DNA of 64,000 nt, from NCBI RefSeq assembly GCF_003790525.1, contig NZ_CP033633.1. One strand, given 5' to 3'. Positions 7,370-16,624 of the stretch are shown here, one piece after another (position 1 is the first letter of the stretch; every line of letters starts with the position of its first letter). A program made the position numbers and the translations under genes. This stretch comes from Escherichia coli (GTDB taxonomy: Bacteria > Pseudomonadota > Gammaproteobacteria > Enterobacterales > Enterobacteriaceae). The notes below the pieces were generated by a model. It did no database searches, was not told the DNA's origin, and saw only the letters and a list, made by a program, of their open reading frames with translations.

Positions 7370-8044
7370 TCAGCACAGGCTTAACAGTGTAAAAATGATT
7401 ACGCCTCCAAAAGCGAATAACAGGGGAATGTTTTTCTCCGGCTGTGTTGATCTCAGCGTTAATACCGGTGTGGCGAGAGCGTAAAAAATAATACCTGCGG
7501 TATAAATAAAATAAGGTGTGATGCCGGACAGATTACATACACTGGCGAATATCATAAGCATGACGGCAACTACCGATAAAATAATGGAAGTATTCTTCCA
7601 TTCACCAGATGGTGTAAGTGAAATGATATCGCCATCCTGTTTATAGTTCGTGTTCAGCTTCAGGAAATGACGGATATCTTTCAGCGTGTTCAGTTTCTGC
7701 TGGATCTCTTCCACAAGTTCCTGTCTGTCGGTTTTTTCACGGAGCAGCTGGAATTTTGTCTCCCTCAGTACAGATATAATACGGTCCACCTGGCCGGGGG
7801 AGGGATAGTAATGATGTTCGAGCATCCACCGGATATCGGCGATTAACCGGTCAGTTACCGGTGTATTACCGTTGTTAATGAGAGGTGTTTCGTGCATCCA
7901 CTGAAATATGCGGTAGATATGTCGCTTAACAAAAATAAAATCATCGGTGGTTTTATTCTCCAGCATGAGATATATCCCGTCGAGTGTTAATAATAAAACG
8001 TCCCGGGTGTGAGGTGATTTGTGATGTATTGTACGGAATATCAT
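7370..8044 (-). CDS. hypothetical protein with C-terminal transmembrane helices (unassigned, inside pil operon)
   Basis: 224 aa; soluble N-terminal ~150 aa then 2-3 hydrophobic helices; AT-rich relative to flanking pil genes; no recognisable motif. Confidence 0.55.
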   Translation of the reverse strand: MIFRTIHHKSPHTRDVLLLTLDGIYLMLENKTTDDFIFVKRHIYRIFQWMHETPLINNGNTPVTDRLIADIRWMLEHHYYPSPGQVDRIISVLRETKFQLLREKTDRQELVEEIQQKLNTLKDIRHFLKLNTNYKQDGDIISLTPSGEWKNTSIILSVVAVMLMIFASVCNLSGITPYFIYTAGIIFYALATPVLTLRSTQPEKNIPLLFAFGGVIIFTLLSLC

Positions 8045-8175
8045 TTCTGCACTGTAATCGTTTACGCAGGTGATATATCACACCAGAGTAAATACAGCGG
8101 AATGAAGCTGTAGAGTGACCAGAAAAGCCCGACGGGATCTTTTGCCCACAGGCATAAGAATGTCAGTCCGGTGCA

Positions 8176-8616
8176 TCATGCGCCGGCAAGTGCCGCGCAT
8201 AATTCAGCGCCTCCGGAATTGCCGCTCTTCATCATATAACAGAGCGCGATCAGCAGTGGGATAATGAAGACGAGCGGCAGGACAAAGGATTCGGCTGCGG
8301 ATATCCATTCCCGGTAACGCCAGCGGTCGTTTAATCTGTCGGCATCATATTTCAGACAGTTGCTCAGGAACGCCAGATCGTTCATGAGGGGGGCGTCCTG
8401 GCCATACTGCGCCGCGAGGCGCATTCTGGCACCCCACAACCGGGCACTCAGGGCACGGAGTTGTGCCGGGGTGACCTGTTTTCCCCGACAAAGTTGTACC
8501 TGTAATTGTGTTGCCTCGTGGACAATATCTGTGTGGTTCACCCCATATTCTGCAGCGGCTGTTTCCAGGTCACGGATGATCAGGCTGAGCCAGGATATCA
8601 GTTCACTGATGTTCAT
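8176..8616 (-). CDS. hypothetical protein with C-terminal transmembrane helix (unassigned, inside pil operon)
   Basis: 146 aa; soluble N-terminal part then FVLPLVFIIPLLIALCYMM helix; co-directional, between pilP and the 224-aa ORF. Confidence 0.55.
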   Translation of the reverse strand: MNISELISWLSLIIRDLETAAAEYGVNHTDIVHEATQLQVQLCRGKQVTPAQLRALSARLWGARMRLAAQYGQDAPLMNDLAFLSNCLKYDADRLNDRWRYREWISAAESFVLPLVFIIPLLIALCYMMKSGNSGGAELCAALAGA

Positions 8617-12514: not shown

Positions 12515-13585
12515 TTATTCCTGTGGACGATCTGTCACCCGCAGCAGACATTGTGCTGTGCTGGTCCGGGCATACAGCGGTTTTTCCACCGGGGTGTAGA
12601 GTGCAAATAGCTGTTCCAGCGCCTGGCGGAAACTGCCGGTGAAAACCAGAGGAGCATCGATGCTGTAGTTGACAGGTGTTTCCCAGCGCAGTGTCCATGT
12701 GCCGTGCGGGCATTTTTCGGATGATGTCCAGCGGGCCAGTCCGTCTTTCAGGGTGGTCCCCTTTTCCATTTTCCACTGCCGTGGCGGTATGACCTTCTGC
12801 GGTGGTGTCACTACCGGTTTCGTGGCCACCGGGGCTGGCGTGGTTGTTCTGCTCTCTGGTGTTCCGGATGTCCCGGTGGTGGTCTGAGCCCGGGATACGC
12901 TGACGGCAGGTGGTACCTGTGCCTGGTCTGCCGCTGTTCCGGTTGTGCTCCTGAACGGATTACGTGGTGTGTCCGCTGTTTTCTGTGAACCCTGCGGTGT
13001 CGTGACGTCGACCGGCGGTGTTGCAGAGGTCGTGACAGTCAGTATTTTCCTGTTCCAGTCCATATGTCCGTAAAGCTGCTGGCCGGCCAGCAGCGCATTC
13101 AGTGCCCGGTGCCACTGGTCATTAACGGACCAGGAAGGGAGGCGTTTGTTCAGTGCCGGTGTGGCGGCATTCTGCTGGCGGAACTGCCAGCCGGTTGGCA
13201 GCAGCTGGCGTATCCAGTCACTGACGGTGCGCTGACGTGCTTCACGTAAATAAACGACGGATGAGGGACCGGGCTTACCGGTCATAACCAGTGCAGACAG
13301 CGGTGTGGCCTGAAGAAGCGGGCGGGGAGGCAGTGCGGTACTCTGGCTGCTGACAGTGGTTGAGGGTGTCGCCGTTGTTGTCGGACGGGGCGGTGTCACA
13401 GGGCGGGTCACCGGTGGCGGAAGCAGACGTTTTTGCGTATGGGTGATAATGGCAGCACTTTCGCGAATTTGTCCGTCGACGAACACCAGAGCCGGAGGCG
13501 TGGTATCCGGAACAGGCGTGGCATTAAATGCCGTACAGCCGCTGAGTAATGACGGCAGAAGGAGTGTCAGTGATTTCTTTTGCAT
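12515..13585 (-). CDS. pilL: PilL, pilus assembly lipoprotein
   Basis: 356 aa; lipobox LLSGCTAF; Pro/Thr-rich linker; first large gene of the pil operon. Confidence 0.7.
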   Translation of the reverse strand: MQKKSLTLLLPSLLSGCTAFNATPVPDTTPPALVFVDGQIRESAAIITHTQKRLLPPPVTRPVTPPRPTTTATPSTTVSSQSTALPPRPLLQATPLSALVMTGKPGPSSVVYLREARQRTVSDWIRQLLPTGWQFRQQNAATPALNKRLPSWSVNDQWHRALNALLAGQQLYGHMDWNRKILTVTTSATPPVDVTTPQGSQKTADTPRNPFRSTTGTAADQAQVPPAVSVSRAQTTTGTSGTPESRTTTPAPVATKPVVTPPQKVIPPRQWKMEKGTTLKDGLARWTSSEKCPHGTWTLRWETPVNYSIDAPLVFTGSFRQALEQLFALYTPVEKPLYARTSTAQCLLRVTDRPQE

Positions 13586-13706
13586 AGAATATAATCCGGT
13601 ATATTACGGGTTACGGTATAAGACAGGTGGCGGGTAACTGGCCTTCAGATGAATATCATTTCATCGGGTTATTGATGATGAACCTTAAAAATCACAGAGG
13701 TGATGC

Positions 13707-14102
13707 ATGATAAAGAAGATGTGGCGTTATTTACGGCAAATTGATAAGTATGAATTGCTGCAGCAGGTGATTTCAGTACATGAAGTGGAACTGCTCAGGA
13801 AAATGATGACAGATTCATTATTAGGGTGCTCAGTAGGATATGTGTTTTCGAAAATACTGAAGATATTCTTTCTGCGTTTTATTCAGTCTGAGGGGGGATG
13901 GGATATTATTACTTACTTTTTGTGGATGCTGGGAATACTTATTGTCATGGCCGCGCTGTTTATCTGGATGTGCGCCGCTGTATGCTATGAGCTTCGGATG
14001 TATAAAATAAAAACAGGAAGGGAGAACGATATATTATTCTGGGTGTGGATTCTTCTTTTTGATGTCGCGGTTGTATTTTCGCTGGGTAATGTTATCTGGT
14101 GA
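13707..14102 (+). CDS. hypothetical small membrane protein (AT-rich)
   Basis: 131 aa; at least two hydrophobic helices; plus strand, opposite to surrounding genes; abuts ORF 14103-14534. Confidence 0.4.
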   Translation: MIKKMWRYLRQIDKYELLQQVISVHEVELLRKMMTDSLLGCSVGYVFSKILKIFFLRFIQSEGGWDIITYFLWMLGILIVMAALFIWMCAAVCYELRMYKIKTGRENDILFWVWILLFDVAVVFSLGNVIW

Positions 14103-14534
14103 TTATGGGTTCAGTGACATATGGAAAAAGATAAGTGCGAACATTGATACTGAAGAATAATATATCCAGGAATAGAAAAACATGAATTTCGGAGATGGTT
14201 TCTTCTGTCTCCTGTTTTTCAGGGGAGTCTGTGGGTCAAATGTTATCAGCGTCATTAAAGGATACCCTTTCATAAGAATAAAAATATAGACGCATAAATG
14301 AGCGTAAAGAGGTAACCTGTCCTGCCAGAACAGAATCATCATGATGACGGCAAGATGAAATGTCGTTACATTGATATAATAAAACCAGCTGTATTTACGC
14401 AGATACTGTTGGATATTCACGCTGTCAGCATGCGGTTCTGGTGAACAATTTATGCAAAAACAGAAGAAAGAAATGATGATGAACACGGTCAGAGTGACCG
14501 GTAATACAGTCACAAGCAGAAAGAGTATGGACAT
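14103..14534 (-). CDS. hypothetical polytopic membrane protein (AT-rich)
   Basis: 143 aa; 3-4 hydrophobic helices; convergent with 13707-14102. Confidence 0.4.
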   Translation of the reverse strand: MSILFLLVTVLPVTLTVFIIISFFCFCINCSPEPHADSVNIQQYLRKYSWFYYINVTTFHLAVIMMILFWQDRLPLYAHLCVYIFILMKGYPLMTLITFDPQTPLKNRRQKKPSPKFMFFYSWIYYSSVSMFALIFFHMSLNP

Positions 14535-14606
14535 AAAAATATCTCCGTCAGGATAGTGTGATTATTCCTTTATGGTTCCATAACCCGGCGTAGCTCCGTC
14601 GACTGG

Positions 14607-14924
14607 TTATAATTTTATCCGGGACCTGGCTTTAAGGGGTAATGCCACCTCTTTCCATTCACTACAGCTTCCGGGAATACGTTCTGTGCGTCGTATTATT
14701 CGTGTGTTCTGGCATACAATAATCAGGGCATTGTCTGCCGTCTGAAATGGCATTATAGCGATGTTTATATCTTCTGTTGCAGGAATATAACTGACTTTCT
14801 TTTCACATGTATTGGTGTATATGACAACTCTGAATTTTTCTGCGGACATTTTCAATCCTCTTTTAAGCCAGAATATCCCGTGAGGGCATTCTTTGTGAAA
14901 AAGATGCCGGAAAAATTCCGGCAC
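14607..14924 (-). CDS. hypothetical small protein (start may be the internal ATG at 14849)
   Basis: ORF track 105 aa; internal MSAEKFRVVIYTNTCEKK... is a plausible start; directly downstream of the SPFH gene. Confidence 0.4.
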   Translation of the reverse strand: MPEFFRHLFHKECPHGIFWLKRGLKMSAEKFRVVIYTNTCEKKVSYIPATEDINIAIMPFQTADNALIIVCQNTRIIRRTERIPGSCSEWKEVALPLKARSRIKL

Positions 14925-14929
14925 GGGGA

Positions 14930-16624
14930 TTAAACCTGTTGTGGTTCTGAGTTATCCGGAGTGGTTACCGGTTCGCTGACATCCGGAACCTTTTCCGGGG
15001 CAGGCATGACCAGTGGACGTGTCAGGGCTGTAAGTCCTTCACCGGATAAACCCACCTCTTTCAGCAGGGAGTCGATGAGCGGAGCCTGTGTACGGTAAGC
15101 CAGAGCGGCGGTTACTGCCTGTTCAGCGAGATTTCCGCCACTTATGTCGGTTGTTGCTGTTTTACCGCGGGTAACACCGCCATTCAGACCATCCACCTGA
15201 ATGATTTTAATACCGTCAATGGATTTCATTGGTTCTGTGGACTTCTCTATGACGGCAGGTAATGCATCCAGCAGGGCAAGACGGAAGCGGAGGCTGGTCT
15301 GCTCATCCGAAAGCACGTTAATGGCATCGTTCAGTGCGCGCTGTGCTTCTGCTTCTGCCAGACCTTTCTGACGGGTGGCCTCCGCCAGTTCAATAATTGC
15401 TGCTGCCTGGAGTTCGGCTGCTTCTTTTTCAGCCTGTGCGCGAACCGTCAGTTCAACCGCTTTCGTTTCAGCTTCCTGAGCAGCAGCAATCAGGGCAACC
15501 TGTTTGGTACGGCCGGCCTCTGCAGTCTGGCGGGTGGTTTCCACATCCTGCTGGGCCTGTACGGCCTCAGCCAGTGCTTTACTTGCCCGGGCTTCTGCCT
15601 GTGACTGCTCTTCCGATTTTGCCGCCACGGCAATGGCTCTGGCCTGGCTGGCGATTTCGGTTGCCTGCTGTTGTTCAATTTCCCGTATGGCCACTTCCCG
15701 TTCGGCTTCGACCTGGCGGGTACGCACTATCTGCTGTCGTTCGATTTCGGCTTCCTCTATCTTACGTTCAGCCAGAATTCGCGCGGATTCTGCTTCACGA
15801 CGTCGTTCAGCTTCAATAGCAGCAATACTGGCACTCTGCTCTGCCGTACGGGTTTTTACCCGTTGTTGTTGCTCCAGAGTCATGAAGGCTTCCTGCTGTT
15901 CAATCTCCAGACGTCGGGAGAGTGCATCCCGGTTTTTTTCCCTGATGGCCACTTCAACATCCTGCTCAACTTCGTTGCGTTCGCGGCGACGACGTTCTGT
16001 TTCCTGGGTCAGAAGGGTCAGGCCTTCAGCATCAAAGGCATTGTCAGGATTAAAATGTACCCGTGCAGTCTGGTTGAAACTTGTCAGCGACACACTTTCA
16101 AGCTCCAGACCGTTTTTGGATAAGTCTTCCGCAACGGTGTTCTGCACACCCTGAACAAAGTTCTCGCGGGCATCCTGTAAATCCTGCATGCTCATTCTGG
16201 CCGCCGTGGCCCGTAGGGCATCAACAAATTTATCCTCGACCAGACTACGCAGATCTTCAGGTGTGAGCGTGCGTTGTCCCAGCGTCTGGGCTGCAGTGGA
16301 TATTCCTTCGGCTGATGGTTTTACCCGAAGAAAAAAGGCAACGGCAACATCAACACGCATGCGGTCGCGGGTTATGAGACTTTCAGCCGCTGCACGACTG
16401 ACTTCCAGCTTCAGGGTGTTCATGTTGACGGGAATTGTTTCGTGAAAAATGGGCATAACAATTGCACCGCCACTCATTACCACTTTTTGGCCTCCCAGAC
16501 CTGTGCGGACAAAGGCCTGCTCTGCCGATGCCCGGCGGTACAGGCGGGCAAATATCAGCCCGATAACGAACAGGGTGAGGACCAGCGCTATAACGGTAAA
16601 CAACCATCCCGGAAGATTAAACAT
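14930..16624 (-). CDS. SPFH/band-7 (flotillin-like, YqiK-like) membrane protein
   Basis: 564 aa; N-terminal TM helix, SPFH-like region, then long Glu/Ala/Arg/Gln-rich coiled-coil; size and layout match E. coli YqiK. Confidence 0.75.
   Translation of the reverse strand: MFNLPGWLFTVIALVLTLFVIGLIFARLYRRASAEQAFVRTGLGGQKVVMSGGAIVMPIFHETIPVNMNTLKLEVSRAAAESLITRDRMRVDVAVAFFLRVKPSAEGISTAAQTLGQRTLTPEDLRSLVEDKFVDALRATAARMSMQDLQDARENFVQGVQNTVAEDLSKNGLELESVSLTSFNQTARVHFNPDNAFDAEGLTLLTQETERRRRERNEVEQDVEVAIREKNRDALSRRLEIEQQEAFMTLEQQQRVKTRTAEQSASIAAIEAERRREAESARILAERKIEEAEIERQQIVRTRQVEAEREVAIREIEQQQATEIASQARAIAVAAKSEEQSQAEARASKALAEAVQAQQDVETTRQTAEAGRTKQVALIAAAQEAETKAVELTVRAQAEKEAAELQAAAIIELAEATRQKGLAEAEAQRALNDAINVLSDEQTSLRFRLALLDALPAVIEKSTEPMKSIDGIKIIQVDGLNGGVTRGKTATTDISGGNLAEQAVTAALAYRTQAPLIDSLLKEVGLSGEGLTALTRPLVMPAPEKVPDVSEPVTTPDNSEPQQV

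Follow-up and report, generated by a model that had tools for sequence, protein, structure and literature searches.

The 64,000-nucleotide (nt) stretch of Escherichia coli DNA considered here (contig NZ_CP033633.1 of assembly GCF_003790525.1; hereafter, the window) belongs to a conjugative E. coli plasmid of the I-complex, type IncK2/Z. It is 99.9% identical to the E. coli plasmid pE16-3 (IncK2/Z, MPF_I), and in 5426 complete E. coli genomes its sequence matches plasmids exclusively, at 418 places, with no chromosomal match. Between pilI and pilL, it carries two small open reading frames (ORFs), ORF1 and ORF2, that face each other and represent two distinct protein families. Together with pilI, this lineage-restricted membrane pair very probably occupies the hypervariable slot that holds pilJ and pilK in plasmid R64.

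Organization of the locus

The minus strand carries, in this order, traB (NusG-like), traC, a yqiJ-like NfeD gene, the flotillin gene, pilI, and ORF2. ORF1 comes next, on the plus strand, and is followed by pilL, pilM, pilN, and onward (Table 1). An earlier note, made from the sequence alone, had described ORF1 and ORF2 as abutting tail to tail, AT-rich, hydrophobic, and without motifs, one of them opposite in strand to the pil operon, and had placed them in the small-gene region of R64-type pil operons. This description stands. The stop codons are adjacent: ORF1 ends in TGA at 14100-14102, and the TAA of ORF2, which reads TTA on the plus strand, is at 14103-14105; ORF1 is the gene on the opposite strand; and the location is the pilI-pilL slot, where R64 carries pilJ and pilK. 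The G+C content is 0.394 in ORF1, 0.380 in ORF2, and 0.403 in the third small ORF; it stays at 0.36 to 0.43 across ~13500-14900, compared to 0.52 to 0.61 on both sides. The residues I, L, V, F, M, W, A, and C make up 59% of the ORF1 product and 52% of the ORF2 product, and neither protein has a match in NCBIfam, PADLOC, PHROGs, or Pfam. The NCBI Prokaryotic Genome Annotation Pipeline (PGAP) labels ORF1 a "hypothetical protein" and leaves ORF2 uncalled in every record examined.

The third ORF is pilI. The same note had given it as 14607-14924 and could match none of the three ORFs to pilI, pilJ, or pilK. A GTG-started frame of this length does exist and overlaps the terminator-like hairpin 3' of the flotillin gene, but the real coding sequence is shorter and starts at an ATG preceded by AGAGGA, as indicated by the NCBI/PGAP extent (14607-14849, "PilI type IV pilus biogenesis protein") and by Pfam coverage. 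Its 80-amino-acid (aa) product is a full-length member of the PilI family (PF10623; E = 1.7e-31; residues 5 to 79, model positions 2 to 76 of 77), although it is only 30% identical to R64 PilI. The absence of a match therefore holds for ORF1 and ORF2, which are unlike PilJ and PilK, and not for the third ORF. The current RefSeq annotation of pE16-3 omits pilI, whereas the PLSDB copy lists it.

Table 1. Features of the pilI-pilL region in the window and types of slot content in related plasmids
Feature	Position or occurrence	Strand	Basis or remark
pilL, TcpQ-family lipoprotein gene, left flank of the slot	12515..13585	-	ORF, annotation, Pfam TcpQ on orthologues
pilL-ORF1 intergenic region, present in all slot types	13586..13706		Alignment; plasmids of types C and D are 83-87% identical here
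Shine-Dalgarno sequence of ORF1, GAGGTGA	13697..13703	+	Read from sequence
ORF1 (type A allele), 131 aa, ATG start	13707..14102	+	ORF list, PGAP annotation, homologues in type C and D plasmids
G6 homopolymer in ORF1 (codons E-G-G), frameshift hot spot	13892..13897	+	Public variants
ORF2 (type A), 143 aa, ATG start, oriented like pilI and pilL	14103..14534	-	ORF list, public variants, paralogue
Terminator-like hairpin and T-run, ~90 nt past the ORF1 stop, within ORF2	14191..14212	+	Weak: counts not above shuffle expectation
Shine-Dalgarno sequence of ORF2, GGAG, 8 nt 5' of ATG	14543..14546	-	Read from sequence
pilI, 80 aa	14607..14849	-	Pfam PF10623, PGAP, identity to R64 PilI
Promoter-like site TTCACA-16-GATATT, 5' of pilI	14872..14899	-	Consensus match only; count not above shuffles
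Terminator-like hairpin directly 3' of the flotillin stop	14904..14924	-	Hairpin search
Flotillin/SPFH gene (YqiK-like), right flank of the slot	14930..16624	-	ORF, annotation; Pfam Band_7 and Flot on orthologues
Type A slot: pilI, ORF2, ORF1 reversed, pilL	Window, L001, L002, L013
Type C slot: 295-aa double unit, ORF1-C convergent	L008, L031, L009		Gene ends overlap by 8-11 nt
Type D slot: pilI, ORF2-A, 295-aa gene, ORF1-C reversed, pilL	L015-L020; L014, L023-L026		Extra 94-aa ORF in L014, L023-L026
111-aa type slot: single soluble Cys-rich gene	L003 (1657-1992), L004 (1727-2062), L006		IncK2/Z, IncB/O, IncK1

Evidence that ORF1 and ORF2 are genes

A reading frame of at least 131 codons appears in 46 of 2000 (2.3%) shuffles of the 921-bp cassette. 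At least 1000 public contigs encode the identical ORF2 protein (P0086), and hundreds more encode other 143-aa variants. Six ORF2 alleles, 90 to 97% identical and with up to ~5% nucleotide divergence, all keep the 143 codons with no indel or stop. Ratios of nonsynonymous to synonymous substitution rates (dN/dS) are 0.26 to 0.65 among the ORF2 alleles, 0.30 to 0.55 for the gene of a 295-aa paralogue, and 0.33 to 0.7 among the ORF1 alleles of type C plasmids (ORF1-C), indicating purifying selection that is relaxed but real.

Homology beyond these close alleles is detectable at the protein level only. ORF2 aligns with each half of the 295-aa protein at 28 to 30% identity (BLASTP, E values of 3e-12 and 2e-10). 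In this alignment, the units of the 295-aa protein begin with M-S...LPV.L and end with N-P, so that the start and stop of ORF2 coincide with the ends of the tandem-fused units. The ORF1 allele of the window (ORF1-A) shares 34 to 37% identity with ORF1-C (E = 8e-17), which occupies the corresponding position, in the same direction, in plasmids of types C and D. The possibility that these are spurious ORFs in AT-rich DNA, which the earlier note had allowed for, is refuted by the conserved frames, dN/dS below 1, the homologues, and the Shine-Dalgarno sites; judged from these comparisons, ORF1 and ORF2 are real genes.

ORF2 starts 72 nt downstream of the pilI stop on the same strand; in L015, the gap is 27 nt. 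Type C alleles of ORF1 have an equivalent GGGGTGA or GGGGGA before the ATG. A plus-strand hairpin with a T-run lies inside the partner gene, 70 to 110 nt after the ORF1 stop, in both allele types, including a similar plus-strand hairpin 70 to 90 nt past the ORF1-C stop in L008. The pilL-ORF1 intergenic region has no consensus sigma-70 promoter on either strand, no minus-strand terminator was found after ORF2, and Rfam recognizes no RNA family in 13300-15200.

Families confined to one slot

Members of the ORF1 family occur in 148 PLSDB plasmid records and members of the ORF2 family also in 148, with an equal split among species; all of these plasmids are conjugative. An exhaustive profile search with the ORF2 family in 1.84e9 representative proteins returns six matches, all from the same plasmid family, and word-index queries by ORF1, by ORF2, and by the aligned ORF1 family yield E. 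coli plasmid proteins only. By these searches, both are ORFan families that occur only in the slot between pilI and pilL of I-complex plasmids. ORF1 and ORF2 are unrelated to each other. Searches of PADLOC, NCBIfam, and PHROGs for toxin, antitoxin, or defence models yield nothing at E < 0.05 for either protein, and a sequence search of the PDB with both family profiles is likewise empty. The best library match of ORF1, the Pfam FtsX C-terminal domain (i-E of 0.0023), covers transmembrane (TM) segments and is treated as compositional. The available literature on IncK2, I-complex, and R64 pil genes yielded no paper describing ORF1 or ORF2.

Neither family is homologous to PilJ or PilK by BLASTP and hhalign, with all hhalign probabilities at or below 3.5%. 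Against PilJ of R64 and ColIb-P9, ORF1 has no BLASTP match (hhalign, 0.1%), and ORF2 has a 29-residue match at E = 4.5 (hhalign, 3.5%); against PilK, neither family has a BLASTP match (hhalign, 0.2%). The sole echo is a short motif, QYLQQY[KR], present in R64 PilJ and, within the 295-aa paralogue, in its N-terminal half.

A cassette site between pilI and pilL

The flanks of the slot are matched by 465 PLSDB records, of which 90 have the arrangement of the window. Both families are absent from ~317 of the 465, which instead encode a soluble 111-aa Cys-rich protein. Wherever the pair is present, its genes converge and touch: a single ORF1-type gene faces an ORF2-type partner that comes as one unit, as tandem copies, or as the 295-aa fusion. 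The extra 94-aa ORF of L014 was considered as a further member of the ORF2 family and rejected after comparison.

Nucleotide identity between slot types is 93 to 94% in pilL, 96% in pilM, 95.5% in pilI, and 96% in the flotillin gene. It falls to 54% between ORF1-A and ORF1-C, compared to 49% for shuffled sequence, with the break at the ORF1 start codon and the divergence beginning at ~13685-13700, immediately 5' of it. Thus, backbones that are 93 to 96% identical carry ORF1 alleles whose proteins share ~35% identity. The presence of different genes between the same conserved flanks in related plasmids identifies the slot content as a swapped cassette. In the 111-aa type (L004, 1602-1949, plus strand; also L003 and L006), the Shine-Dalgarno sequence, the start codon, and ~32 initial codons of ORF1-C are still present and run into the antisense of the 111-aa gene, a scar showing that this type derives by deletion from an ancestor with ORF1.

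The earlier note had suggested a foreign insert. The idea of an exchanged piece holds, since the cassette is swapped, but a foreign origin is too strong a claim. The pilJ and pilK genes of R64 and ColIb-P9 are equally AT-rich (G+C content of 0.355 to 0.38), so that AT-richness is a property of the slot and no proof of foreign origin. The G+C content at third codon positions is 0.47 in ORF1 and ORF2, close to the 0.50 of pilS and pilT, and the two families are found only in this slot. At second positions, it is 0.29 to 0.31; the low values at codon positions 1 and 2 follow from a hydrophobic membrane composition rich in Phe, Ile, Leu, Tyr, and Lys. Codon adaptation is lowest of the region in ORF1 (0.55).

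A search for repeats flanking the cassette that might resemble recombination sites gave only short, chance-level matches. A direct repeat, which may be due to chance, consists of ACCGGTGGCGG in pilL (13410-13420) and ACAGGTGGCGG in the conserved pilL-ORF1 intergenic region (13623-13633).

The alternative occupant of the slot (L003, L004, and L009 at 7843-8190) is a soluble protein of 111 to 115 aa with several conserved cysteines, including a CPVC motif; its only family match is a marginal one to PADLOC PDC-M07B (E = 0.047). Type C plasmids without the flotillin and NfeD genes encode a 169-aa (L008, 6783-7292) or 121-aa (L014, 1535-1900) protein upstream of the module. It has two TM helices and a charged tail, a layout that recalls R64 PilJ, with insignificant similarity (E values of 0.1 to 0.6).

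The pil operon has a second cargo slot, between pilQ and pilP, which are adjacent in R64. In the window, it holds two hypothetical minus-strand genes, at 7370-8044 and 8176-8616, whose 224-aa and 146-aa products have no match in NCBIfam or PADLOC. In pMB5823_2 (L009, 262-784), the same slot holds, on the opposite strand, a small gene and a RelE/ParE-family toxin gene, likely a toxin-antitoxin pair.

Predicted topology

The AlphaFold2 model of ORF1 is of low confidence (predicted local distance difference test [pLDDT] of 65) and has helices at residues 2-16, 24-60, 67-103, and 109-130. Lys and Arg are concentrated in residues 1 to 32 (seven) and in the loop 95-108 (four). These charges and helices suggest a basic cytoplasmic N terminus followed by three predicted TM helices, in an N-in/C-out orientation. 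The most conserved part of the protein is a juxtamembrane helix, LLQ..S...V.LLR..MTDSLL.CSVG.VF.

For ORF2, the model is also of low confidence (pLDDT of 51), too poor for a fold search, with helices at residues 3-29, 49-70, 76-98, and 115-141. Seven Lys and Arg residues lie in the loops 30-48 and 99-114, and one lies elsewhere outside the helices. ORF2 is accordingly predicted to be an inner membrane protein with four TM helices and an N-out/C-out orientation, which would be compatible with head-to-tail fusion into an 8-TM, 295-aa form.

Decay of ORF1 and ORF2 copies

ORF1 has been inactivated in many independent ways next to an intact ORF2-type gene. All retrieved frameshifted variants of ORF1-A (P0020-P0023 and P0080-P0085) break at the G6 tract, in at least three forms; with 15 members listed per cluster, contig frequencies are rough, and among the cluster members listed, these frameshifts occur on ~43 contigs compared to ~190 intact ones. 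The tract was considered as a conserved phase-variation switch and rejected: it is absent from the type C alleles of ORF1 and is thus a mutational hot spot. In L013, ORF1 has a 5' deletion. In pMbl536 (NZ_KY689635; L030, 2495-3263), an in-frame loss of codons 4 to 105 leaves a 29-codon ORF1-A beside an ORF2 identical to that of the window; an IS66 insertion truncates pilI in this plasmid. ORF1-C is frameshifted N-terminally in L015-L017 and reduced to 94-aa forms in L020, L028, and L029.

Breakage of ORF2-type genes is rare (P0095, 13 contigs, with no ORF1-A in its context; P0099, 5 to 8 contigs; and a few singletons). The 295-aa gene is broken in two cases, and ORF1-C is broken in both. In L027 (positions 1-742 of a GCA_902849685 contig; 8 contigs), an insertion sequence encoding an HTH_Tnp_1 transposase has taken the place of pilI and of ORF2 codons 1 to 38, and ORF1-A is intact. 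Viewed as a toxin and its protector, the two genes thus occur as a broken ORF1 with an intact ORF2, with both broken, and with both deleted; L027 is a reverse case.

Possible functions

The reading tentatively favoured here is that ORF1 and ORF2 form a dispensable, lineage-specific cognate membrane pair in which an ORF2-type protein partners or neutralizes a costly ORF1 product. It is suggested by the conserved convergent pairing, the deep codivergence of the alleles, the occurrence of ORF2 units as orphans or fusions, the repeated loss of ORF1, and the joint loss of both genes. The mechanism, taken by itself, is possible at best. ORF2 would be transcribed with pilI in the pil operon under the control of TraB and TraC, and ORF1 would be transcribed against it, with reciprocal expression of the two; the genes abut, which forces the 3' ends of their mRNAs to overlap. 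The products would be cognate partners in the inner membrane, with ORF1 imposing a cost on the cell and an ORF2-type protein acting as its stable protector or neutralizing partner, and the pair would work like a membrane effector and its immunity protein or like a holin and antiholin. It would be accessory cargo of the slot and not a core part of the thin pilus.

Several observations weigh against this reading. With only two allele types, cognate pairing cannot be separated from simple linkage, and a pilus-linked role would account just as well for the position in the pil operon and the confinement to its slot. A search for a consensus promoter of ORF1 found none, and a Foldseek search of PDB and AFDB50 with the low-confidence ORF1 model gave no match at E < 0.8. 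The state seen in L027 should not be tolerated by a simple toxin/antidote pair. The mutable G6 tract may explain part of the excess of broken ORF1 copies, and among the members listed, the numbers of independent disruptive events are similar in ORF1 and ORF2.

A pilus-linked role is the substance of the main alternative, considered somewhat unlikely: ORF2, perhaps together with ORF1, would be an accessory of the thin (type IVb) pilus in IncK2/Z plasmids, a nonhomologous functional analogue of R64 PilJ and PilK. The pair sits in the same pilI-pilL slot and nowhere outside it, ORF2 follows pilI in the same orientation at the short distances given above, and PilJ and PilK of R64 and ColIb-P9 are also small AT-rich membrane proteins that outpace the divergence of the backbone. 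The QYLQQY[KR] motif noted above agrees with such a role, as does the title of Sakai and Komano (2002), cited in PMC10286972, which lists pilK with the genes that the R64 thin pilus requires. However, homology is undetectable by hhalign (probabilities of at most 3.5%), ORF1 runs antisense to the operon and has frequently been inactivated, and about 317 of the 465 related PLSDB plasmids have neither family. Moreover, the pilus of the IncI2 plasmid TP114 works without pilI, pilJ, and pilK (PMC9045228). IncK1 equals IncK2 in liquid mating at 37°C (PMC6803427), and the IncK1-typed L006 has the 111-aa type, although the plasmids of that study may differ from it in slot type.

Allele-specific exclusion or protection appears improbable. 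In the manner of F TraS, SXT Eex, or an exclusion protein of a phage or colicin, ORF2-type units in the inner membrane of a cell that carries the plasmid would block an incoming plasmid, a pilus phage, or a membrane-acting toxin, and tandem or fused units would broaden the specificity. Small polytopic AT-rich inner membrane proteins encoded within a transfer operon, dispensable, restricted to one plasmid family, arrayed as one to three divergent units, and replaced in closely related plasmids by nonhomologous or highly diverged versions would fit this. Yet I-complex plasmids already possess ExcA/TraY entry exclusion, ORF1, which is invariably linked, is left without a role, and neither protein resembles the exclusion or defence families of Pfam, NCBIfam, PADLOC, and PHROGs. 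Least probable is that ORF1 and ORF2 are functionless, decaying leftovers in a hot spot of recombination and deletion where ORFans drift, and that ORF1 may not be expressed. The high dN/dS values (0.3 to 0.7), the many truncated forms, the frequent complete loss, the missing ORF1 promoter and low ORF1 codon adaptation (0.55), and the failure of PGAP to call ORF2 point this way. Against decay, dN/dS stays under 1 throughout, ORF2 recurs unaltered on at least 1000 contigs and keeps its 143 codons throughout 5% nucleotide divergence, frames and unit boundaries are kept across paralogues and alleles that are only 28 to 37% identical, both genes have good Shine-Dalgarno sites, and the convergent, touching layout is retained in both allele types.

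An elaboration of the cognate pair, itself rather unlikely, is a polymorphic, codiversifying system of an effector (ORF1) and a protector (ORF2), in which protector units, orphan and fused, would accumulate as in immunity arrays and convergent transcription would make expression inverse to that of the thin-pilus operon.

Relation to known systems

In R64, pilI, pilJ (150 aa), and pilK (196 aa) all lie on the pil strand, and ColIb-P9 has diverged alleles of the last two; R64 and ColIb-P9 are 86% identical in PilK and 70% in PilJ. The genes pilI, pilJ, and pilK are variable among IncI1 plasmids (PMC8004404). The cassette of the window resembles pilJ and pilK of R64 and ColIb-P9 in that it occupies the same slot, encodes small membrane proteins, has a similar G+C content (0.38 to 0.39, compared to 0.355 to 0.38), and diverges faster than the backbone. 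It differs in that PilJ and PilK have two N-terminal TM helices and a soluble domain, whereas four and three TM helices are predicted for ORF2 and ORF1, respectively; in that ORF1 is on the opposite strand; and in that the pair is absent from about two-thirds of the related plasmids. ORF2 matches R64 PilJ by position only, as a small membrane protein encoded just 3' of pilI on the pil strand. R64 pilK lies directly upstream of pilL on the pil strand, whereas the pilL-adjacent gene of the window, ORF1, is on the opposite one. The ORF1/ORF2 cassette is thus a new, nonhomologous variant that fills an already-known variable slot.

The immunity genes of pore-forming colicins (three TM helices in the E1/Ia type and four in the A type) are likewise small and AT-rich, encode inner membrane proteins, and are antisense and convergent to the neighbouring operon gene. 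In the window, however, both convergent partners encode small membrane proteins; no Pfam or NCBIfam match to this immunity class was found, and the annotation of the matching plasmid lists no colicin gene over 50 kb.

TraS of F and Eex of the SXT/R391 elements are polytopic inner membrane proteins of ~140 to 170 aa that are encoded in transfer operons and are nearly unrecognizable between related elements. They have no sequence relation to ORF1 or ORF2, and the linked ORF1 has no counterpart among them.

Holin/antiholin-like pairs (CidA/LrgA) and RexB of phage lambda are proteins of ~130 to 145 aa with three or four TM helices that act as antagonistic membrane partners. Here the differences are that ORF1 and ORF2 have no match in PHROGs, Pfam, or PADLOC and that the predicted N-in/C-out orientation of ORF1 is the reverse of that of class I holins.

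Implications for I-complex plasmids

Among the main vehicles of blaCMY-2 and blaCTX-M in E. coli from poultry and humans are IncK2/Z and IncB/O plasmids, and the rules assumed for their transfer genes come for the most part by extrapolation from R64. The pilJ/pilK part of the R64 model is not transferable to this locus, where unrelated small membrane proteins fill the cassette site. With at least 1000 contigs, ORF2 is among the most widely sequenced uncharacterized proteins of these plasmids, yet it is missed by automatic annotation. Whether the pair is an antagonistic or specificity module or an analogue of PilK, the practical gain would be modest until a phenotype is found. An analogue of PilK would represent the nonhomologous replacement of a pilus assembly factor. 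If the pair is an antagonistic or specificity module, the biology of plasmid competition would gain a new element, and an effector/protector system would amount to a novel type of module for conflict between plasmids or between plasmid and host, made of two families without relatives elsewhere.

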